Shown here in pieces: positions 1 through 11,699 of a stretch of DNA of 13,793 nt. The notes beneath the pieces are model-generated. The model made no database searches. It saw nothing but the letters and a program-made list of their open reading frames with translations, and was not told the origin of the DNA. This DNA is from Candidatus Bathyarchaeia archaeon (lineage in GTDB: Archaea; Thermoproteota; Bathyarchaeia; Bathyarchaeales; Bathycorpusculaceae). The stretch is taken from assembly GCA_049969855.1 (NCBI GenBank), contig JBMFOB010000026.1, positions 1 to 13,793 of the forward strand, given 5' to 3'. Made by a program: the position numbers and the translations under genes. Position 1 is the stretch's first letter. The number at the start of each line of letters is the position of its first letter.

Positions 1-79
1 CTCTTAGGGCTTGCACTTCAATCTTGCCAACGCGGTAGACTTTCACTAAATCCTTAATTTTTATGTCTAAACCTTTCAT
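1..79 (-). CDS. 5' part of an ABC transporter ATP-binding protein (LolD/MacB-type), runs off the window edge
   Basis: Not in the ORF track. Manual translation from ATG at 79-77 gives MKGLDIKIKDLVKVYRVGKIEVQALR, a typical LolD-type N-terminus that resembles the ATPase at 9732 (VKDVKKSYRMGKVLVPALRG). The start overlaps the upstream permease stop (ATGA, 79-76). Confidence 0.85.
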   Translation of the reverse strand, partial: MKGLDIKIKDLVKVYRVGKIEVQALR

Positions 80-2862
80 CTTAGGCGAACCATCCGTTCC
101 AGTTTAGTCACATATCTTCTTGACATGATTAGGATTGGAAGGATTGTTGCTACAAAAATGAGCGCTATACAAGAAGTAAGCATTAAAGTTGTGTCTAATG
201 GAAAAACGAGGCGTCTTTTAACAAGTTCTAAAATCATAGCATTGGAAGAGGAAATGTTTCCATACACAATAACAATGCCTACAAAAATGCCCAATATGAC
301 GGAAAAAGTTACGAGGGCGAGATTTTCTGTTAAGAACATTATGACCAACTGCTTGTACGATAAGCCTTTGACGCTCATAATTGTGGCTTCACGGCTTCTC
401 TCCTTTAAGCTAACAACGCTTATGAGGGCTGTTCCAACTGAGGCGGCTAAAACTGCGAAAACAATGCCTAACCTTTGAACGTCTAACGTGCCCATTGTAA
501 TAACATCTTCTTGGGCTTTCTCCCACTCCTCAGCGAAGGATTGCACTTGAATTATATCTAAGTTCATACTGCGAATTTTGTTGGCAACAAGTTTTCCGTC
601 TGCTCCATCCTTTAGTTTTAGCAGTATTCTTGCTGAGGGACTTACATATGTGCTGATTTCTTCTAAGAACTCTTGTGAAACATAGGACCAGTATCTGTTT
701 ATGGATGCTTGGAGCGGGTAAATTTGGGATTGGGATTCTGAGCTTGGACCAAAAAAGCCAACAACCCTAAGCCCTATCTGTTGTGAATCAAAGCTTAAGT
801 AGAGATTTCCTCCGATTGTGAGATTGACATATGATTCGGCGACGAAGCGTTCTAAAATAATTGTGTGGTTATCTGCGGCTAAGTTGTTAAATGCGGTTGT
901 CACATCAGTTCCGCTGAACCAGTCACCTTCGTAATAGGCGGTTTTTAACCAAGCATTCGGCTCTACCGCCTTCATAAAAATGTTGCCAACTGAAAATGAA
1001 TATTCAATTGTAGCGTTATAAACAAATTCGGAAACATTTGTCATTATAATGTCCAGAATTTCTGGTGCATTATTAGCGTAGGAAACACTAACAGCGATGT
1101 CTGCGCCAACCTCATAGTAGATTCTTCTCATGGCATAGTCTTGTTCGCTGGCTAATTGCCCATTAACTTGAACGCTATAGCCAACAATTAAAGCGATTAG
1201 GAAAGCGATGGCTGCTGAACGGGCTGGATTTCTCCTAACATTTTTTGTGGCTAAAACTCCTAAATCGCCAAAAAACTTTGCTGCTTTCGCTGTTAATTGC
1301 TGGAACTCCAGTGAGCCCTGAATGAACATTTTTGTGAATCCCCAAAAGAAAAGCAATGGTCCAATATAGTTAAGTATCGCATCGACAAACATGAAAATTC
1401 CAACAAGAAGCATGAGAATAAAGTTTCCACCACCAAACATTATTCTTGTTAAAACCGCAGTCATGTTTACGCCAGAGAGGAAAACTGCTATTTTGTATCT
1501 TCCCAAAATTAACGCAACCATAGGCCACCTTTTCTTGTACGGTTTCTCTATTTCCATGGGCAAGTATTCTCTAAGTGCTTCTACCGTTGGAAGTTGGGAA
1601 GCCTTTCTCGCTGAGCTATAGGTTGAGAGCAAAGCCATGATGACGCCGAAGGCTATAGTGAAGCTTACGGTGAAGGGGCTGATCAGATTTAAGTTGAACA
1701 GTGTGTCAGTGCTAAATTGAGTGAATAACGGGTTTAAAAGAAAGCCCAAAAATACTCCAAGGGCTCCACCAATCAATCCAATCAGCAAAGTCTCAGTCAA
1801 AAAAGTTCGCAGAATATGACCTCTTGAAAAACCCTTTGTCAGCAATAATCCAATTTCACGTCTCCTAAGATTGAAGGAAACATCCGAAACAGTTGTTCCC
1901 ATATACCAAGCCATAAAAAATATTGGAAGAGAAACAAGAGTAAACATGAACCTTATGCCTATAGATGCAAATTGGAAACTGTACAAAGGTCCTTCTAAAT
2001 TGTTCTGAATACCAATAGAGCCTAAATCTTGAGCCACAGCATTCGTGATACTATTTTCTACCGCTTGAAGATTGTTAAGGGATGTGCCTATGTCCCATGG
2101 ATTTATCAAAACATCTCGGTTCAAGTAAACGAGAAGGCTTGTTTCCATCCACCCATATGACCGATATACATCTGGCAGTGACGGCAAAATTTTCTGCATT
2201 GTTTTCTCCCAACTCACAAGAAGTAGGAAGTCCATCTGGGTTGTTGGGGATATGGCTTCTGTTTGAAAAGGCATCGGCCAATACGGAGAACCCAAAGCAA
2301 TTGCAGCCGCCTTATCATCTAAATGGGCGAAACCTTTCACTGTTAGGTTTAAAGGTATGTTAATTTGGGTGTCGTATGTGGAAAAGTTTACTTGGATTAC
2401 ATCATTAACTTTTACCATGTTGGCTAAAGCCGTATTTTCTGGAATGTAAGTTTCATTCTCCCCTATTTCTTCTATTTGCCTATTTAACCATCCCTTATAA
2501 ACTTGTGAGTAATTTGTTATGGCAGTAATTCTCGCCATATCTTGCAATGAATAATTTTTATCTGAGATTGTTATTTGAACCCAAGAAACTCTGGAAATGA
2601 TTTCAGCGTCTATAACTCCACTAACGCCTAACACTTTATCTCGAACAGTTAACAGTTTTGTCAAGTTGCTAAGGTTTTGTATGTTTGCTTGCATGTCAAC
2701 ATAAACATATCTAAGCTGCTGCTCCATGGCTTGTTTGGCAGTTGCATTTGCTTTAATGTCTATGCCAGCAAAGAATGCAGAGGCTAAAGTTATTCCTATC
2801 AAAAGTGCCAAGAAAAGTTTCCATGAACAAAACACATGTTTAACAGCGTAGAATATGGGCAT
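76..2862 (-). CDS. Large ABC transporter permease with two FtsX/MacB-like repeats (928 aa)
   Basis: Two FtsX signatures (RRREIGLLLTKGFSRGHI...ETLLIGLIGG and ERSREATIMSVKGLSYKQL...ENLAL), each preceded by a TM helix and a large extracytoplasmic domain. Translationally coupled to an ABC ATPase. Confidence 0.9.
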   Translation of the reverse strand: MPIFYAVKHVFCSWKLFLALLIGITLASAFFAGIDIKANATAKQAMEQQLRYVYVDMQANIQNLSNLTKLLTVRDKVLGVSGVIDAEIISRVSWVQITISDKNYSLQDMARITAITNYSQVYKGWLNRQIEEIGENETYIPENTALANMVKVNDVIQVNFSTYDTQINIPLNLTVKGFAHLDDKAAAIALGSPYWPMPFQTEAISPTTQMDFLLLVSWEKTMQKILPSLPDVYRSYGWMETSLLVYLNRDVLINPWDIGTSLNNLQAVENSITNAVAQDLGSIGIQNNLEGPLYSFQFASIGIRFMFTLVSLPIFFMAWYMGTTVSDVSFNLRRREIGLLLTKGFSRGHILRTFLTETLLIGLIGGALGVFLGFLLNPLFTQFSTDTLFNLNLISPFTVSFTIAFGVIMALLSTYSSARKASQLPTVEALREYLPMEIEKPYKKRWPMVALILGRYKIAVFLSGVNMTAVLTRIMFGGGNFILMLLVGIFMFVDAILNYIGPLLFFWGFTKMFIQGSLEFQQLTAKAAKFFGDLGVLATKNVRRNPARSAAIAFLIALIVGYSVQVNGQLASEQDYAMRRIYYEVGADIAVSVSYANNAPEILDIIMTNVSEFVYNATIEYSFSVGNIFMKAVEPNAWLKTAYYEGDWFSGTDVTTAFNNLAADNHTIILERFVAESYVNLTIGGNLYLSFDSQQIGLRVVGFFGPSSESQSQIYPLQASINRYWSYVSQEFLEEISTYVSPSARILLKLKDGADGKLVANKIRSMNLDIIQVQSFAEEWEKAQEDVITMGTLDVQRLGIVFAVLAASVGTALISVVSLKERSREATIMSVKGLSYKQLVIMFLTENLALVTFSVILGIFVGIVIVYGNISSSNAMILELVKRRLVFPLDTTLMLTSCIALIFVATILPILIMSRRYVTKLERMVRLR

Positions 2863-4201: not shown

Positions 4202-4747
4202 TTACGCTTTTAAAACCATTATGAGCACGTTTACAAAGCCTACTTCCATGATGGCTGCAATGAGGAATATGCCGTAAATATATGCTAAATCCTTCATGGA
4301 CATTTTTCTCCTCAAAGTTTTCTCTATTGTCAAATAAATTCCGTACCCTTCAACGATTCCTATGGGTGTGCTTATAAGCAGAATTAAGGGCAAAGCTTCA
4401 ACAGTTACCCCACCATAAATTAGGGTGCTTCCCCGCAAAATGCTCAAGAAAACAATCATAACCGTAAAGATCAAGGCAAAGGTTTTCGGATGCTCAAGCA
4501 CAATATTCCCATATTTTTCCCTCTTAAAGAAATTTAAAACCACCAAATTGACGTAGAAGGTCATACCTAAAAGAATTAGTGAAATCACGATAAGGTTATG
4601 GATAAAAAGCACGGCTATAGCTACAAGCTGATTGCTAAGGATTATGCTCAAACTCTGAAAGAAAATTGTATTCTCAACATAAGAAAGCAAAAGAAAAATT
4701 AGAAAAGCCAAACCTAAAAACACAGTTCGGGTTTTTTCACCAAACAA
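4202..4747 (-). CDS. Integral membrane protein, SpoIIM/DUF95-like
   Basis: About 5 hydrophobic helices. LFIHN, PIGIVE and LIAAIME echo the SpoIIM F-x-NN, PHG-x-x-E and AA-x-x-E motifs. TTG start with GAGG upstream. Confidence 0.65.
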   Translation of the reverse strand: MFGEKTRTVFLGLAFLIFLLLSYVENTIFFQSLSIILSNQLVAIAVLFIHNLIVISLILLGMTFYVNLVVLNFFKREKYGNIVLEHPKTFALIFTVMIVFLSILRGSTLIYGGVTVEALPLILLISTPIGIVEGYGIYLTIEKTLRRKMSMKDLAYIYGIFLIAAIMEVGFVNVLIMVLKA

Positions 4748-4758
4748 CTGTTAAACCT

Positions 4759-5250
4759 CTAAAGGATTAAAATCATGAAGGAGCTAAAACGTTCAATTAG
4801 GATGGCGAGAATGCCGAAGAACAAAGCCAGTAAAATTATAACAGCCAAATAAATGACTATTGCCAATATGCCAACCGCCAACGACCCAAGCCAACCTGTT
4901 TCGTAGAGGCTTTTTATTAGAAGCAGCCAAGTGATTATGCTAAGTATTAAAGCTATGACAGGATATGGAATGAACATGAGGAAAAGCGTCGACAAAACAG
5001 TTCCCAGAAGCGAAATTATTAGGGCATCTGTTAAACGAGCCCGTTTTCCGCCAACAACAATTAATCCAGATAGATAAAGAACAACCGTTAACACAAGTAA
5101 ACTGACAAAGAAAAGCACTAAGGAAAAGATTATTGCAAGTCCCCTGCCAAGTTCGCCGATAATGTTATCCCACCAAGAGCCTTCCCTTCTTGCAATTAGG
5201 CTTGTAAGCAGTACAATTCGCAGCATACTTGTTAACGTCATATTGACCAC
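4759..5250 (-). CDS. Hypothetical integral membrane protein
   Basis: 163-aa ORF with 4-5 TM segments, co-oriented and 11 bp from the next gene. The start could be GTG 5250 or ATG 5241. Confidence 0.75.
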   Translation of the reverse strand: MVNMTLTSMLRIVLLTSLIARREGSWWDNIIGELGRGLAIIFSLVLFFVSLLVLTVVLYLSGLIVVGGKRARLTDALIISLLGTVLSTLFLMFIPYPVIALILSIITWLLLIKSLYETGWLGSLAVGILAIVIYLAVIILLALFFGILAILIERFSSFMILIL

Positions 5251-5304
5251 TTAATGGTTAGCCATATTCAGCTTCATGGAATAAAAATTTTGCTGACATT
5301 CTAT

Positions 5305-5619
5305 TCAGATTCTTTCTCGTTTTATCTCGAAAAGCACTGTTCCGCCGTTCGTGTAGGGTTTTCCAGGGTCCAAGCATTGAATGTAACCTTTTTCTCCTTC
5401 TTCTTTTGCTAAGCCTAATTGCTTAAAACTTATTCCATGACTTAAGGGCACAATCATTGAAAGCAAGGAGCCAAAAGCGTGAACGCAGATGTTATCTGTT
5501 TTGCTAATAACAATTTTCGGCGATTCTACTGTTATTTTTTCTCCAACCTTGAAAACTGGACATTTTCCCCGAATCTCCTTAACGGTTATGACTAAACGGT
5601 AATTCTCTCCGTTTTGCAT
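5305..5619 (-). CDS. TIGR04076-family small Cys-containing protein
   Basis: Pattern ITVKEIRGKCP-x-FKVGE ... ICVHAF ... CLDPG ... GTVLFEI with the three family cysteines. Confidence 0.8.
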   Translation of the reverse strand: MQNGENYRLVITVKEIRGKCPVFKVGEKITVESPKIVISKTDNICVHAFGSLLSMIVPLSHGISFKQLGLAKEEGEKGYIQCLDPGKPYTNGGTVLFEIKRERI

Positions 5620-5744: not shown

Positions 5745-6953
5745 ATGACAATGGGAAATCGTCCGGCAATAGTTGCGGTTGGAAGAACAAAATTCGGCGA
5801 ACACTACGAGAAGGAGCCTGAAAAGCTTATTGAAGAGGCTTGGCTTAAGGCTTCGCAGGAAGCGGACATAGAACGCAGAGACTTGGAAGCCTGTTACCTT
5901 TCAGACTATTTCTTGCCAATAACGAACAAGCTTGGGCTAGAAGAGGGTTTCCTTTCTGAGCTTACGGAATTGCATGTGCCGATGGAAGTAACCCGCTCCT
6001 TCAGTTCAGCCTTGTTTAATGCTTGCAATGCCATCCAAGCTGGGAGATACAATGTTGTTTTGGTTGGCGGAATAGAGAAAATGACCGACCGCTGGGACAA
6101 AATCCGAGATGACCTTATGCTTCTTGAAGACCCTTGGAGTTATTATGCTGGTTGCACGCCTGAGGCAAACCATGAGCTTATGCTTAGGGCTTACATTAAG
6201 AAATATGGAATAAGCGGTGATAATCTTGAAAAATTAAACACGGCTTTGGCACAGATTTCTGTCAAAAATCATTTGCACGCAACAAAAAATGAATATGCGC
6301 AGTATCAGAGGAAAATAACTGTTGAGCAAGTTTTAAATGCTAGGAAGGAAGCGCGAAAACCTTTGGGGCTTTACGATTATGCGCCAATTTCTGATGGTGC
6401 CTCTGCGCTTATCCTAGCAAGTGAAGACTTTGCTGAAAAGTTTACTGACAAGCCCGTTTACATTCTTGGTTCTTCTTTAGCGACGGATTATCTAACATTT
6501 CCAGCGAGAGAAGATCTAACACATTTTTTTGCAAGCAAAATCGCCATTAAAAATGCTTTGAAAATGGCTGGAATAAGCCTCTGGGACATAGGAATTGTTG
6601 AACTTTACGACCAGTCCACAGTTATGGAGATGATTTCGCTTGAGGATTTAGGATTCTGTGAACATGGGAAGGCTTGGCAAAACATATACGAGAGCTGTCA
6701 AGATTATAAGGGCTATTACGAAATTAATGGAAAGAAACTTTTCACAAATCTCAACGGTGGATTAAAAGCGGATGGAAACCCGTTAGGCGCCACTGGCGGA
6801 GCCCAAATTTTTGAAGTCTTTAAACAGTTGAGGGGCGAAGCTGGAGAAAGGCAAGCCAAAAGTGATGAAAGACTGAAATATGGCTGTGTAATGGAGCTTG
6901 AGGGTTTTGGAACTAAAAGTTACGTCTACATTTTAGGGAGGAATCATAAGTGA
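5745..6953 (+). CDS. Thiolase-fold protein (archaeal acetoacetyl-CoA thiolase/SCP2-type) lacking canonical catalytic residues
   Basis: Fold motifs GRTKFGE, GGIEKM, KNH..A..N..AQ, PISDGASA, EDLGFC, GGLKA and GATG are present. CASG reads TRSF, HDCF reads YDQS and GHP reads GNP. The start may be ATG 5751 given SD spacing. Confidence 0.9.
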   Translation: MTMGNRPAIVAVGRTKFGEHYEKEPEKLIEEAWLKASQEADIERRDLEACYLSDYFLPITNKLGLEEGFLSELTELHVPMEVTRSFSSALFNACNAIQAGRYNVVLVGGIEKMTDRWDKIRDDLMLLEDPWSYYAGCTPEANHELMLRAYIKKYGISGDNLEKLNTALAQISVKNHLHATKNEYAQYQRKITVEQVLNARKEARKPLGLYDYAPISDGASALILASEDFAEKFTDKPVYILGSSLATDYLTFPAREDLTHFFASKIAIKNALKMAGISLWDIGIVELYDQSTVMEMISLEDLGFCEHGKAWQNIYESCQDYKGYYEINGKKLFTNLNGGLKADGNPLGATGGAQIFEVFKQLRGEAGERQAKSDERLKYGCVMELEGFGTKSYVYILGRNHK

Positions 6954-8458
6954 GCAGTGAACCAATAGAGAGAAGAGTTTCATATTTAGGCGATAGGTTA
7001 AGGGGAAGGCGCTGTGGAATCTGCGGCAAAGAGTATTTCGAGGTTAGGGACTACTGCGGAGTTTGCGGAAGAAAAAGCTTCGGAAAAATGGTTGACATAG
7101 ACTTTTTCTACGAGAAGGGCAAGCTTGAAATTTGCACGCTTATTAATGAACCGACAAACAAGTTCACGAAGCTTGGAAAATACATTTACGGCATAGTTTC
7201 CTTTCACAACGGCAAAATCCGCGTCCCCGGAAGACTGACTGACCAAATAACGAAAGAAAATGAAGAAATTGATTTTTCAGTTTTTGAGGGGAGGGAGGTT
7301 GTTCCAAGGTTTAGGAGGCGCTATTCGGTTGATAAAAGTGACGTAATTCCAACAATTTCCTTAGCCTTCACATTCGCCGACGAATATTATCCCCACCAAG
7401 AATACAATGTTGTTAAGCCGAATAAAGAGTATGAAACGCCTGGAATAGTTGGTTATGGAGTTTACATTCCAAGATTTAGGATTAAAGAGGGCGGCATGGA
7501 GCGTTCTGTTCCATTTATTGACGAAGACTCTATAACGGCGGCTGTGGAGGCTGGAAAACTCGCGCTGATTCATTCCGGAGTTGACAGCACTCTCGTTGGA
7601 AAGGTTTACGTGGGCTCAGAATCCAACCCATACGCCGTAAAACCCATCGCCTCAAAGGTTGCGCAGGTTCTGAAACTCGGCGAGGAAGATGAGGACGTTC
7701 AAGGAGTGGACGCCGTAGACACAGAATTTGCATGCAAAGCCGCCACAAGCATGTTTAAGGATGCAGCTTCGCTGGTTAACTATCCAAAATCAAACATTCG
7801 ATACGCAATGGTTATAGGCACAGACAATTCCCAAGCAGCTCCAAGAGACTGTCCAGGCGGAGAATTAGACCTATTCGTTGGATTCGGTGCATGCGCCTAC
7901 ATCTTTGGAAAAAATGATGTTATTGCTGAGGTTGAAGGATGGTACTCATGCACTTCTGACACGCCAGACTTTTGGCGCAGAGACGGACAGCCTTACCCAA
8001 TGCATGGTGGACGGTTCACTGGAGAACCAGCCTATTTTAAGCATATTCGCAAGGCTGCGAAGAAGCTTATGGAAAGGCTTAACCTTAAAGTTGAAGACAT
8101 CAACTATTTTGTTGTTCACCAGCCTAATGTGCAATTTCCAATGAAAGTCGCCAAAGAACTCGGCTTCAAAGAAGAACAGTATCTGCCGTCAATTCAAGTG
8201 GCAAAATTTGGCAACACATACTCCGGTTCTTCCCCACTTGGATTAGCATCCGTTCTTGACATTGCTAAGCCAAATGAACGCATCCTCATTGTAAGTTATG
8301 GTTCAGGCGCTGGAAGCGACGCCTACTCCCTTGTTACCACAAACCAAATACTTGAAAAGCGGAAACGCCAAAAATTGACAGTTAAGTATCAAGCTGAAAA
8401 TCCTTTCTTAAGCTATGTGGACTACACAACTTATAGACGATTGAAGGTTGGAATGTAG
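6950..8458 (+). CDS. mvaS: Fusion of N-terminal DUF35 (Zn-ribbon + OB-fold) and archaeal hydroxymethylglutaryl-CoA synthase
   Basis: aa 22-39 CGIC/CGVC zinc ribbon and an OB-fold ending in PRFRR. From aa 164: GIVGYG.YIP, DED, GSES (E224), EFACKA (C262), DTPDFWRR, HGGRFTGEPAYF, HQPN (H390), GNTYSG and SYGSGAGSD. GTG start overlaps the thiolase stop (GTGA), with SD GGGAGG at 6936-6941. Confidence 0.92.
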   Translation: MSSEPIERRVSYLGDRLRGRRCGICGKEYFEVRDYCGVCGRKSFGKMVDIDFFYEKGKLEICTLINEPTNKFTKLGKYIYGIVSFHNGKIRVPGRLTDQITKENEEIDFSVFEGREVVPRFRRRYSVDKSDVIPTISLAFTFADEYYPHQEYNVVKPNKEYETPGIVGYGVYIPRFRIKEGGMERSVPFIDEDSITAAVEAGKLALIHSGVDSTLVGKVYVGSESNPYAVKPIASKVAQVLKLGEEDEDVQGVDAVDTEFACKAATSMFKDAASLVNYPKSNIRYAMVIGTDNSQAAPRDCPGGELDLFVGFGACAYIFGKNDVIAEVEGWYSCTSDTPDFWRRDGQPYPMHGGRFTGEPAYFKHIRKAAKKLMERLNLKVEDINYFVVHQPNVQFPMKVAKELGFKEEQYLPSIQVAKFGNTYSGSSPLGLASVLDIAKPNERILIVSYGSGAGSDAYSLVTTNQILEKRKRQKLTVKYQAENPFLSYVDYTTYRRLKVGM

Positions 8459-8506: not shown

Positions 8507-9664
8507 TTGTTTGCCTATGGAATATTCAAGGTCATATATGCGCCACATAAAGCGTTTAAGGAGATAATTCAAGACCCAAAATATTTTGGACCAATTTTAA
8601 TAATGATTCTCTTCATTGCAGCAAACACAGCGTTTGCTTACACCTTATTATCTAGGCAATACATTGAGCAGACTTTGCCCACCGCTCAGCAAAAAGACGT
8701 GTGGACTGAAAACTCCACTTTATGGACGTCTAATGGAGCGCTTCCCAAGAACAATTATGACGATTTCATAAATGGAACCTACTACGGAAACAGCAGCATC
8801 GAATTCTCCATAGTTAATAACACTCAAGTTTGGATGCAGCTAAACGATATGGGAACTGTAAACTGTTCAGGACCAGACGGCTACAGTAGCCTATATTTAA
8901 GAGTAAAATGGACAAGTCCAAAGGACAAACCCCAAAATGTAACTATTTTCCTATTTTCTTCAACTCCTTCCGACTACTTTTATTATAACCTAACAGAGAA
9001 TTTCTCGAATTCCACCTTTAACGTTTGGAACAACTTAACAATACCGCTTAGGGAAAACTGGTTGAATAATAGCCTTACTGCAAGCTGGGATAACATAACG
9101 GGCATAAAATTGGATTTCGTATGGCCTGAAAGCTCCGACATAACCATATTAATTGATGGTTTGTTTTTCGGAGGCATTTTTGAATCTTCACTAACAAATG
9201 TTGTTGGCGACCTAGTCAGTTACGCACTTTATGCTTTCGCACAGTTTGTTATTAAATGGGTTATTCTTGGAGGGCTATTATACATAATGACTAAGGCTTT
9301 TGGAGCAAAAATCTTATGGAGACCAGTGTTGATAGTGATTGGATTTACTCTTATAACCATGTTTATACAAGCAGCCATAAATGCTGCCACATTCTCGACT
9401 TTGCCAACGCTCTATTACAGGTTTGATTTGATGGGAGGCGTTAGTGGAGAAAGCGAGGTTGCCCTCACTAAAATATTGGATGAGGTGGGGCTTGTTAATC
9501 AAATTTATGGATATGTCCAAATCGCCGCATACATCTGGACTATGGGATTATGTGTAGTTGCCACTCGTTTTCTAACCCAGTTTTCTTGGACAAAAAGCTT
9601 TTTCATAGGAGCATTTTCATACTTTGCAAGCATACTACTGGTAAGCATGATATTTGGAATCTAA
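8507..9664 (+). CDS. Yip1-family membrane protein with a large extracellular beta-rich insertion
   Basis: N-terminal Yip1-type P-x-x-x-F-x-x-I motif (APHKAFKEI) plus a TM helix, then about 180 aa of Asn/Ser/Thr/Trp-rich sequence, then 4 TM helices. TTG start with GGAG SD. Lies directly upstream of ABC ATPase and permease genes. Confidence 0.75.
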   Translation: MFAYGIFKVIYAPHKAFKEIIQDPKYFGPILIMILFIAANTAFAYTLLSRQYIEQTLPTAQQKDVWTENSTLWTSNGALPKNNYDDFINGTYYGNSSIEFSIVNNTQVWMQLNDMGTVNCSGPDGYSSLYLRVKWTSPKDKPQNVTIFLFSSTPSDYFYYNLTENFSNSTFNVWNNLTIPLRENWLNNSLTASWDNITGIKLDFVWPESSDITILIDGLFFGGIFESSLTNVVGDLVSYALYAFAQFVIKWVILGGLLYIMTKAFGAKILWRPVLIVIGFTLITMFIQAAINAATFSTLPTLYYRFDLMGGVSGESEVALTKILDEVGLVNQIYGYVQIAAYIWTMGLCVVATRFLTQFSWTKSFFIGAFSYFASILLVSMIFGI

Positions 9665-9677
9665 ATTAAAAGTGAAG

Positions 9678-9725
9678 TTTATAAAAAAGGAAATTATCCC
9701 ATAAAGTTGTTTCCAACGGTTGGAA
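9678..9725 (+). promoter_or_regulatory. TATA box plus palindromic operator-like site
   Basis: TTTATAAA at 9678-9685 and a perfect 7-1-7 inverted repeat TTCCAAC-G-GTTGGAA at 9711-9725. Confidence 0.55.
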
Positions 9726-9731
9726 CCATAC

Positions 9732-10421
9732 ATGGCAATAATCCTCGGAGTCAAAGATGTTAAAAAAAGCTATCGCATGGGCAAAGTGTTAGTTCCAGCC
9801 CTGCGTGGAGTAAGCTTTGAAGTTGAAGAAGGGGCGCTGGTGACAATTTTTGGTCCTTCTGGAAGCGGAAAATCCACTTTGCTGCATCTAATAGGGTGTT
9901 TGGACCGTCCGGATGAAGGAGAAATACTAATTGACGGTGCTAATGTTCTCAAAATGAGCGATGATGAATTGGCTGAGCTTCGCCTTAAAAAAATTGGTTT
10001 TGTCTTCCAATTCTTTAATCTACTGCCAAGACTAACAGCCTTAAGAAATGTTCAATTGCCTTTAACTATTGCTGGCGCATCTGAAGAGGAAGCCTTAGAA
10101 AAGGCTGAAGAAATGTTAAGGCTTGTAGGCTTAGAGGCTCGAATGAACCATAAGCCCTTCGAGTTGAGCGGTGGAGAACAGCAACGTGTAGCAATAGCCA
10201 GAGCCCTAATTAATAATCCGAAAATTGTTTTGGCTGATGAGCCTACTGGAAATTTGGATACTAAAACTGGTTGGGAAATAGTGCAGTTAATGAAAGAATT
10301 GAACGAAAAGAAGGGACAAACCTTTGTGATTGTCACCCATGACCCTCACGTGGCAGAGACCGCTGACCGCATCATCCATTTGAAAGACGGTTTAGTTGAA
10401 GGAATAAAAAGAAGCGCCTAA
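9732..10421 (+). CDS. ABC transporter ATP-binding protein (LolD/MacB/SalX-type)
   Basis: Walker A GPSGSGKST, Q-loop GFVFQFFNL, signature LSGGEQQR, Walker B VLADEPTGNLD and H-loop VTHD. ATG 9732 preferred over TTG 9720. Confidence 0.95.
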   Translation: MAIILGVKDVKKSYRMGKVLVPALRGVSFEVEEGALVTIFGPSGSGKSTLLHLIGCLDRPDEGEILIDGANVLKMSDDELAELRLKKIGFVFQFFNLLPRLTALRNVQLPLTIAGASEEEALEKAEEMLRLVGLEARMNHKPFELSGGEQQRVAIARALINNPKIVLADEPTGNLDTKTGWEIVQLMKELNEKKGQTFVIVTHDPHVAETADRIIHLKDGLVEGIKRSA

Positions 10422-10433
10422 GAGGAATAAAAC

Positions 10434-11699
10434 ATGAAAGCAAGCAAAATATTATTCATAGCTTGGGACAATCTGAAACAGAGAAAACTGAGAACTTCGC
10501 TTACAACCCTCGGCGTCATCATAGGAATCACAACAATAATAGGAATTGCTTCTCTTGGCGAAGGTTTCCGATTAGAAATAAGACAAAGAATGGAGCAAGG
10601 CTTCGAACTCGACGTCCTAATAGTATTTCCAGGAAGCTTCACAGCAGGCTTAACAGAAGGATTCAACCAGACGGATGTTGAAAACATCAGAAACATCCAT
10701 AATGTAACTCTTGTAACACCACTAATAACAATGCCTATGGTGGAAGGAATGGAGTTACGCAACAGCGAAACAAAGCAAAAACTAGGCGCATTTACTATTG
10801 GCGCCGTAAACTTTACTGAAATGAAAGAAATGCTTCCATTGCGATTTAATGTTTCAAGCGGAAGATTCCCAGAGTCAAATGAAAGTTCATTCATTGTTCT
10901 TGGCTATAAAGCAAGCATTGTTAACGAAACTACAGTTGCAAATGTAGGGGAAAACGTTTCTTTAGTCCTTTCTGGATATCCTGTTAAAAATTTCACAGTC
11001 TCTGGAATATTAGCAAAGGGAGGTACATCTGGAATAACAAATTTTGATTACTGGGCTTTTATTTCAATTGAAGACGCTCATCCAATGATGAAGAATCCAG
11101 ATAAGCCTTATCAAATTATTCTTGTGAAGGTTTCTGACCCGCGATATGCAGAGAGCGTTGCTAAAGAGATTGAGAGTCTTTTTCCGCCATATTCCATTAC
11201 TGTTTTTGTGCCTTCTGCTTTGATGCGTCAAGTTGACTACATTTTAAACATTGTTCAAATGTTTTTGGTGGCTATTGGCTCTATTTCGCTTTTGGTTGCT
11301 GGAGTTGGCATAATGAACATTATGACTGTTGCGGTTATGGAAAGAACCCGTGAAATAGGCATATTGAAGGCTATTGGAGCCAAAAGCCGAACAGTTTTAG
11401 GCATGTTTCTCGCCGAAGCAGCTTTGGTGGGCATTATTGGCGGTTTCATAGGAGTCTTCACTGGTTATGGACTTTCTTATGGGTTAGCGCAAATCCTCTC
11501 CAACTTTATGCAGCCTCAACGTCAAGAAACGGTTCTTCAAGCGCCAGAAACCCAAAGAATGCAGATAAACCCAGTTTTCTCACCAGAATGGACTATAGTA
11601 GCCTTTGTTTTCGCCATAATCGTCTGCATAATCTTCGGCTTATACCCAGCGAGAAAAGCCGCAAAACTAAACCCTGTTGAGGCATTACGTTACGAATAG
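10434..11699 (+). CDS. ABC transporter permease, MacB/FtsX family
   Basis: RTSLTTLGVIIGI, an extracytoplasmic domain, VAGVGIMNIM..AV.ERTREIGILKAIGA and GLYPARKAAKLNPVEALRYE. GAGG SD upstream. Confidence 0.95.
   Translation: MKASKILFIAWDNLKQRKLRTSLTTLGVIIGITTIIGIASLGEGFRLEIRQRMEQGFELDVLIVFPGSFTAGLTEGFNQTDVENIRNIHNVTLVTPLITMPMVEGMELRNSETKQKLGAFTIGAVNFTEMKEMLPLRFNVSSGRFPESNESSFIVLGYKASIVNETTVANVGENVSLVLSGYPVKNFTVSGILAKGGTSGITNFDYWAFISIEDAHPMMKNPDKPYQIILVKVSDPRYAESVAKEIESLFPPYSITVFVPSALMRQVDYILNIVQMFLVAIGSISLLVAGVGIMNIMTVAVMERTREIGILKAIGAKSRTVLGMFLAEAALVGIIGGFIGVFTGYGLSYGLAQILSNFMQPQRQETVLQAPETQRMQINPVFSPEWTIVAFVFAIIVCIIFGLYPARKAAKLNPVEALRYE

Follow-up and report, generated by a model that had tools for sequence, protein, structure and literature searches.

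3-Hydroxy-3-methylglutaryl-coenzyme A (HMG-CoA) is the start of all archaeal membrane lipids, and the known archaeal solution to making it is to couple the unfavourable thiolase reaction to HMG-CoA synthase (HMGCS, also written HMGS) in one channelling complex. Here we describe a pair of same-strand genes from a member of the Bathyarchaeia, archaea that are abundant in sediments and hot springs. The pair lies in a 13,793-nucleotide stretch of DNA (the window; contig JBMFOB010000026.1 of GenBank assembly GCA_049969855.1). Its first gene encodes a thiolase fold that has lost its catalytic residues (the pseudo-thiolase) and its second a DUF35 domain joined to the N-terminus of HMGCS (the fusion). 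In the archaeal complex as described, HMGCS alone is inactive and the thiolase, acetyl-CoA C-acetyltransferase (ACAT), is insoluble alone (PMC12960953, citing Vogeli 2018); complex formation creates a CoA site common to both enzymes, and HMGCS of bacteria and eukaryotes exceeds the archaeal enzyme in length by 50-100 residues (PMC11522927). The archaeal-type synthase is therefore structurally dependent on a thiolase.

The nearest described relative of the window pair is the Methanothermococcus thiolase/HMGCS/DUF35 complex (6ESQ), with which it shares three folds and whose chains match each of its three parts best. Both have a complete HMGCS tetrad, and the DUF35-thiolase interface is predicted to be retained in the window pair. 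Unlike the Methanothermococcus thiolase, however, the one in the window lacks CxS, HDxF and GHx; DUF35 forms the N-terminal part of the HMGCS protein rather than a protein of its own; and the gene order is thiolase then DUF35-HMGCS, as against HMGCS-thiolase-DUF35. A second likeness is to the bacterial PhlABC and MucABC Friedel-Crafts acyltransferases and the Pseudomonas fluorescens ACAT/HMGS-DUF35 complex, which are also thiolase/HMGS/DUF35 assemblies in which one condensing subunit is dead and kept as structure; in the P. fluorescens complex HMGS is, moreover, fused to DUF35 (PMC12960953). In those bacterial systems it is the HMGS-like subunit that is dead (no E-C-H-N) while the thiolase Cys is live, whereas the window pair has the opposite polarity, with a live synthase and a dead thiolase. 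A first reading of the DNA from its sequence alone (the sequence-only reading) had called this pattern the reverse of PhlABC, and the comparison bears that out. PhlABC/MucABC-type entries scored weaker than 6ESQ in searches of the PDB.

A third likeness is to the steroid aldolases Ltp2-ChsH2(DUF35) and Sal-Shy(DUF35) and to TbSLP, which have an SCP2-type thiolase fold, no nucleophilic Cys, and Tyr at the position of the HDxF His (PMC12329534). They differ from the window pair in that HMGCS here takes the place of a hydratase as partner, and in that the Tyr occurs here in only 29 of 35 loci. Fusions of DUF35 to thiolase-superfamily proteins have been known since 2010 (PMC2954200), and a C-terminal HMGCS-DUF35 fusion from Streptomyces is cited from Vogeli 2018 in PMC11522927. 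A literature search, the scope of which excluded Vogeli 2018 itself and all supplements (which may mention archaeal DUF35-HMGCS fusions), found no printed description, for Bathyarchaeia, of a dead thiolase next to HMGCS.

The pseudo-thiolase matches the Pfam families Thiolase_N and Thiolase_C_1, and it scores under the curated cut-off of every NCBIfam thiolase model (the best being NF004720, 298.6 versus 420; NF053570 gave 250 versus 600). The motifs of ACAT are CxS, HDxF and GHx, and the H284A change in HDxF abolishes HMG-CoA formation (PMC12960953). When the pseudo-thiolase was compared with 6ESQ_A and with the intact thiolase of the window's own genome, the region of the nucleophile aligned as VTR----SFS against EAACASSS in the intact protein, so that CxS is gone, and other residues stood at the HDCF, GHP and C-terminal NxGG positions (Table 1). 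In the 31 live thiolase rows of the alignment, the N of NxGG is conserved at 94% and the G at 100%; more generally, 18 of the 66 alignment positions that are conserved at 85% or more in those rows differ in the dead clade. The early claim that the thiolase has lost its catalytic set thus stood, with all three motifs gone in 35 of 35 loci examined. Because CxS, HDxF and GHx are lost, the pseudo-thiolase is, judged by its sequence, unable to make acetoacetyl-CoA by the known mechanism.

The explanation we favour, at a probability of roughly 65%, is that the pseudo-thiolase is a pseudo-enzyme derived from the ACAT subunit of the archaeal thiolase/HMGCS/DUF35 complex, which lost catalysis and has been kept as an obligatory non-catalytic partner of the fusion, and that acetoacetyl-CoA reaches the synthase in trans. 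In such an assembly the pseudo-thiolase, probably dimeric as is usual, would bind the DUF35 domain that is now covalently joined to HMGCS, and this binding would assemble and stabilise the synthase; the live thiolase of the Methanothermococcus complex has the same role. By likeness to the same complex, it probably also completes the CoA-binding site of HMGCS. Acetoacetyl-CoA would no longer be made or channelled within the complex but would come in trans, here presumably from a second thiolase and its own DUF35 protein encoded on another contig (C14), and the intact E-C-H-N tetrad of the fusion would then make HMG-CoA for HMG-CoA reductase. Three of these steps we infer: the physical binding, from a model only; the contribution to CoA binding; and the trans supply. 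If the synthase depends structurally on its partner and acetoacetyl-CoA is made by another thiolase, then the partner's chemistry would be dispensable and the partner itself would not. The sequence-only reading had offered much the same idea as one of two options—acetoacetyl-CoA from elsewhere, and the thiolase fold as a scaffold or CoA-binding subunit—and this option is now favoured by the motif loss at all 35 loci, by purifying selection, by the make-up of the predicted interface, and by an intact thiolase-DUF35 pair in this genome and in 20 of 20 other carriers. The other option, a complex that carries out different acyl-CoA condensation chemistry, is the less favoured of the two.

The synthase half of the fusion appears intact. 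Residues 165-497 pass the archaeal HMGCS model NF003274 (391.8 versus 244); against TIGR00748 the fusion falls just below the cut-off (342.9 versus 353.35), and its HMGCS part aligns with chain I of 6ESQ at an E-value of 1.5e-83. The E-C-H-N tetrad, a defining feature of HMGS (PMC12960953), consists of E224, C262, H390 and N422 in GSES, FACK, HQPN and GNTY motifs, and all four residues are invariant in 38 of 38 aligned fusions; the first three had been picked out from sequence, and N422 completes the set. At the N-terminus, the fusion has the four-Cys rubredoxin-like zinc ribbon of DUF35 (C22, C25, C36 and C39, in a CxxC...CxxC arrangement). This region scores below the Pfam threshold for zf-ChsH2 (19.3-21.1 bits versus 23.2) and has no Pfam match to OB_ChsH2_C. 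Residues 17-93 nevertheless match the DUF35 chain 6esq_E by sequence (E 1e-6), and the domain can be aligned with standalone DUF35 proteins. The AlphaFold2 (AF2) model of residues 1-165 (predicted local distance difference test score, pLDDT, 74) has 6esq_E as its best match among the matches listed (Foldseek E 7.7e-7), and the top 15 listed PDB matches, through rank 18, are all DUF35 proteins. The proposal that three parts of the complex are packed into two genes is therefore sound, as the thiolase fold, the DUF35 domain and the HMGCS domain could each be matched to chains of 6ESQ.

Structural modelling shows an intact fold for the pseudo-thiolase. The nearest PDB structure to the AF2 model of the pseudo-thiolase is 6esq_A (template modelling score 0.91/0.93), and the loop domain is retained. 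In a two-chain model of the pseudo-thiolase and the fusion, modelled as the sequence-only reading had advised, the pseudo-thiolase docks on the fused DUF35 with an interface score (ipSAE) of 0.82, compared with 0.01 for the best control; a like complex has already been solved, so this score speaks for likeness to that complex and is not proof of binding. The mark used for ipSAE is reached by 58 of 80 solved complexes and by 2 of 110 mismatched pairs. The runs agree in at least 96% of contacts, with a pLDDT of at least 92 for the partners, and the predicted interface brings fusion residues 10-139 (DUF35) against thiolase residues 119-152, 203-206 and 251-258. The predicted contacts are enriched in residues that do not vary within the dead clade and are seldom found in live thiolases (10/51 versus 19/351; Fisher p 0.0014). 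In the model, then, the DUF35-binding surface of the pseudo-thiolase looks retained.

Comparative genomics showed the pair to be conserved. Among 201 sampled Bathyarchaeia genomes, 48 have an orthologue of the pseudo-thiolase at 59% identity or more, making 49 carriers with the window's own genome. These comprise all 27 genomes of family f1, genus g14 of family f2, families f3-f6, and one f23 genome. They fall in one order, apart from a single outlier, and because genomes so related are not independent, these counts stand for one clade and not for many events. With the first 160 residues of the fusion as query, matches at 59% or more occurred in the identical 49 genomes and at adjacent coordinates, and the fusion lay directly downstream of the dead thiolase in 30 of 30 loci and in 5 further ones. 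The survey recommended in the sequence-only reading thus found the two genes co-occurring and adjacent throughout, and hence conserved. The 120 best listed database relatives of the pseudo-thiolase are 85-100% identical to it; where named, they are from metagenome-assembled genomes (MAGs) of Bathyarchaeia or Bathycorpusculaceae, and they are labelled acetyl-CoA C-acetyltransferase, thiolase family protein, or hypothetical protein. In a library of 1.8 billion representatives the family is compact, with one full-length representative at 73% identity, the next at 44%, and the rest at 41% or less.

In pairwise comparisons, the dead thiolase had a ratio of nonsynonymous to synonymous substitution rates (dN/dS) of 0.042-0.096 and the fusion one of 0.030-0.075 (8 of 9 pairs, the other being saturated), and 101 of 398 columns are invariant in the 35-row alignment of the pseudo-clade. 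By these measures the pseudo-thiolase is under strong purifying selection and is not decaying. Truncated-looking thiolases beside fusions in G081 and G198 were considered as decayed partners and rejected, because parts of these loci are masked and live motifs stand in what can be read of them. In another genome, G086, the dead-thiolase gene is split over two contig ends (G086:C91 and G086:C62); this is an assembly break, with no frameshift as far as visible.

Turning to the source of acetoacetyl-CoA, the genome of the window (1.28 Mb, 93% complete) has a second thiolase, on contig C14, that scores 557 bits against a cut-off of 420 and has all motifs intact. Downstream of it lies a standalone DUF35 protein of 145 residues with full Pfam matches, and a match to 3-hydroxyacyl-CoA dehydrogenase lies about 3 kb away; nearby open reading frames (ORFs) that by eye resemble crotonase and acyl-CoA dehydrogenase we take to be candidates for these enzymes. 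HMG-CoA reductase is also present, and no archaeal-type HMGCS other than the fused one was found in this genome. A check for other intact enzymes of the pathway, likewise advised earlier, therefore yielded a thiolase and a reductase, and no second archaeal-type HMGCS. Of 20 other carriers examined, all 20 have an intact second thiolase copy with a standalone DUF35 after it, and two carriers that lack such a pair (G020 and G114) have a bacterial-type thiolase II.

The co-occurrence of the intact thiolase-DUF35 pair with the dead one, in the window genome and in those 20 carriers, could also be read as a sign that the dead subunit acts as a bridge, by forming heterodimers with the separate pair or docking it, and that the channelling of acetoacetyl-CoA to HMGCS goes on within a mixed complex. 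Thiolases are obligate dimers, which would count for such an arrangement. We nonetheless regard it as very unlikely, because the live thiolase has a DUF35 of its own and falls in a different thiolase clade, and because two carriers have the bacterial-type thiolase II instead and three have no live thiolase.

Several observations weigh against a non-catalytic partner with trans supply of acetoacetyl-CoA. One is that the 1:1 model contains no contact between HMGCS and the thiolase, so that the shared CoA site is not shown by it. Another is that several of the residues that replaced the old active site are as conserved as catalytic residues would be: in the pseudo-clade alignment S291, E384 and E386 are invariant, Q290 and N345 are conserved at 97%, and R84 at 94%. 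The remodelled pocket (Y288, D289, Q290, S291, N345, R84, E384, E386) might thus belong to a repurposed catalyst doing Cys-independent acyl-CoA chemistry, for example an aldol, retro-aldol or enolate reaction as in Ltp2 and Sal, that feeds or complements the fused HMGCS. Such a role would fit the YDxx sequence at the HDCF position, which recalls Ltp2 (YDHF), Sal (YDCY) and TbSLP (YDCF) (PMC12329534). It would also fit the DUF35 partners with which Ltp2 and Sal likewise work, selection on the pseudo-thiolase as strong as that on the synthase, and the three genomes described below, which have no other route to acetoacetyl-CoA among those searched. On the other hand, Tyr288 is replaced by Asn in 5 of the 35 loci and by Cys in one, and so is no essential base. 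At the third and fourth motif positions, which hold Q and S, a counterpart of the aldolases' second catalytic residue is missing, whether that of Sal (Cys304, the Cys of YDCY) or that of Ltp2 (the His of YDHF, together with a second Tyr, Tyr344). Further, in sequence the likeness to Ltp2 (6ok1_A, E 1.5e-13) falls far short of that to the complex thiolase (6esq_A, E 1.3e-53), and a Pfam/NCBIfam scan of the neighbouring genes suggests no substrate. On balance, a repurposed catalyst seems unlikely.

The conserved pocket, together with a fold that is retained including its loop domain, would equally suit a regulatory or ligand-sensing subunit, in which the former active site still binds CoA or acyl-CoA and tunes HMGCS. 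No direct sign of such a function was seen, and sequence and models do not separate it from a scaffold; we give it the least credence of the alternatives.

The remaining difficulty for a non-catalytic partner concerns three carriers, G082, G190 and G026, in which neither a live thiolase of either type nor a standalone DUF35 was found, so that a trans supplier is not evident in every carrier. Genus g6 has just two species, G082 (95% complete) and G190 (93%), and G026 is 97% complete; all three keep HMG-CoA reductase. Genome incompleteness is a possible cause of the missing thiolases, and it would need to strike three times. Other routes were sought in the same three genomes. A malonyl-CoA route, NphT7-like or decarboxylative, was rejected, as they have no KAS-III beyond the HMGCS domain and no carboxyltransferase. 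For a route through crotonyl- or 3-hydroxybutyryl-CoA, matches to PF02737 were at noise level only. For one from acetoacetate there was no match to a family-I CoA-transferase, with AMP- and ADP-forming acyl-CoA synthetases not searched. A bolder possibility, which we rate as quite improbable, is that the two g6 species and G026 have no thiolase-superfamily machinery besides the dead-thiolase/DUF35-HMGCS pair and that their first mevalonate step runs by a route not yet described. The C4 unit might then be made or acquired by the remodelled pair itself, through chemistry independent of a thiolase, or acetoacetyl-CoA might come from some enzyme that still awaits description.

Other Bathyarchaeia suggest how the pair arose. 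In six genomes (G006, G060, G108, G177, G183 and G003), an intact thiolase (EAACAS, HDCF, GHP) is followed by a DUF35-HMGCS fusion; these live pairs share the two-gene architecture and the fusion with the window pair and differ in that the partner thiolase is live. Three others (G001, G007 and G013) have the classical trio HMGCS-thiolase-DUF35. A quick maximum-likelihood tree of 80 thiolase rows was built with support from the SH-like approximate likelihood ratio test (SH-aLRT) only, and for 10 of its 35 'pseudo' rows, which are database proteins, the surrounding genes were not seen. In this tree all fusion-linked thiolases fall in a single clade (SH-aLRT 100), and the dead thiolases are monophyletic (SH-aLRT 100, stem 0.75) and sister (97) to the live fusion partners. 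Because the dead clade is sister to live fusion-linked thiolases, the tree indicates that the DUF35 fusion came earlier and that thiolase catalysis was lost once, later. A partly stripped state exists outside the dead clade: in G004 (locus L042, on G004:C2), the thiolase next to the DUF35-HMGCS fusion has its Cys loop deleted (ST----TSS) and keeps HDAT and GHP, in a genome with six other thiolase matches.

The zinc ribbon of DUF35 also varies among these fusions. It has three Cys in five of the six Bathyarchaeial live-pair fusions (not in that of G003) and in G004, in contrast to the four Cys of the window fusion. In the fusions of L038-L041, which have live thiolases, and of L042, the fourth Cys is replaced (C..EGR or C..DGR) and three are left, and all four are kept in the fusions that partner dead thiolases and in that of G003 (L043).

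Within the order of the carriers, three genomes (G050, G014 and G044; L099-L101) have neither the dead thiolase nor the fusion and have instead an HMGCS of bacterial/haloarchaeal type, of about 455 residues (best model NF041302, at 311.7 bits, below its cut-off). This exchange fits a dead thiolase that is required solely by the archaeal-type synthase. Two further loci (L097 and L098, in G010 and G002) encode a 508-residue archaeal-type HMGCS with an extra C-terminal stretch of about 140 residues, which gave no match to DUF35 queries or to any Pfam family.

Outside Bathyarchaeia, three Thermoplasmatota loci (L104, L105 and L117) resemble the window in having an HMGCS-operon thiolase without the nucleophilic Cys (Ser in L104 and L105, Asp in L117). 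They differ from it in that both His motifs are kept, the loop is not deleted, DUF35 is unfused, and the thiolases belong to a different clade. These cases are 3 of 27 HMGCS-linked loci, among 35 loci that were fetched with one Cys-less representative. The three have HDAF or HDSY in place of HDCF; in DHVE2/Aciduliprofundum relatives HDAF occurs as well, though alongside a retained Cys. Relatedly, 13 of 31 aligned non-orthologous representatives (P0132-P0160 and others) have no Cys at the nucleophile position (it is D, S, N, G or A), and the solved 'thiolase-like protein ST0096' (4YZO) likewise aligns without it. Cys-less archaeal-type thiolases seem common. Two contigs from Syntrophales MAGs (L136 and L137) carry tandem thiolase-like genes with DUF35-like flanks, a shortened nucleophile loop (VEG---DGA) and YDAY, which recalls the Sal/Ltp2 aldolase type.

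The coordinates of the gene pair are collected in Table 1; the two ORFs, their GTGA overlap and the Shine-Dalgarno-like sequence were all found, in agreement with the sequence-only reading. The 5' end of the first ORF reads ATG-ACA-ATG (5745-5753), and the position of the second ATG, 5751, corresponds to the start in most orthologues. It is better spaced from an upstream AAGGTG, and annotated relatives of 398-400 residues agree with a start there, so ATG 5751 is probably the true start. In orthologous loci, the two genes overlap or are separated by a gap of about 10 nucleotides at most.

A Pfam/NCBIfam scan also covered the flanking genes in the window. Divergently upstream lie three small ORFs (4202-5619, minus strand), one of which encodes a TIGR04076-family protein (5305-5619); the other two (163 and 181 residues) have no match in Pfam or NCBIfam. 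Also on this side is a 928-residue FtsX-domain permease (76-2862, minus strand). On the other side (8507-11699, plus strand) are a Yip1-domain membrane protein and a MacB/LolD-like ABC ATPase plus permease pair. Neither these nor the FtsX-domain permease show an evident tie to mevalonate genes.

Table 1. Features of the pseudo-thiolase/DUF35-HMGCS locus, in window coordinates
Feature	Position	Strand	Remarks
Pseudo-thiolase gene	5745..6953	+	402 residues; archaeal/SCP2-type thiolase fold, catalytic residues gone; AF2 pLDDT 93.5
T83-R84-S85, site of 4-residue deletion in the nucleophilic Cys loop	5991..5999	+	Live enzymes have E-A-A-C-A-S; deleted in 35/35 orthologous loci
Y288-D-Q-S291 in place of HDCF (catalytic His and second Cys)	6606..6617	+	Y in 29, N in 5, C in 1 of 35 loci; D invariant
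N345 in place of the GHP His	6777..6779	+	GNP in 34/35 loci, GSP in 1/35
E384-L-E386 in place of N-x-G of the C-terminal NxGG loop	6894..6902	+	ExEG; E384 and E386 invariant in 35 pseudo-clade rows
Shine-Dalgarno-like GGGAGG	6936..6941	+	8 nucleotides 5' of the fusion GTG; read directly
GTGA start/stop overlap of both genes	6950..6953	+	Fusion GTG at 6950, pseudo-thiolase TGA at 6951-6953
DUF35::HMG-CoA synthase fusion gene	6950..8458	+	502 residues; sole archaeal-type HMGCS found in the genome
DUF35 domain (residues about 1-140; zinc ribbon and OB fold)	6950..7369	+	Predicted docking surface for the pseudo-thiolase
DUF35-HMGCS linker (residues about 141-164)	7370..7441	+	Conserved, with many nearly invariant positions at 137-164; low pLDDT in parts
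HMGCS domain (residues 165-497)	7442..8440	+	Tetrad E224 (7619-7621), C262 (7733-7735), H390 (8117-8119), N422 (8213-8215)

Genes of this kind are publicly annotated as 'acetyl-CoA C-acetyltransferase', with the consequence that thiolases are over-counted in metabolic reconstructions. The locus poses the questions of whether channelling is dispensable given another thiolase, and of what supplies acetoacetyl-CoA in genomes that have no other. Were the dead-thiolase pair indeed the sole machinery in genus g6 and G026, then, together with the independent Cys losses in Thermoplasmatota HMGCS-operon thiolases, the textbook entry to archaeal isoprenoid lipids would be missing in several lineages. 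If the explanation we favour is correct, an order-level lineage of Bathyarchaeia kept the architecture of the complex but killed its thiolase. It would then offer a natural example in which a partner's structural dependence has entrenched a pseudo-enzyme, mirroring the PhlABC and MucABC complexes of bacteria described in 2026 (PMC12960953).

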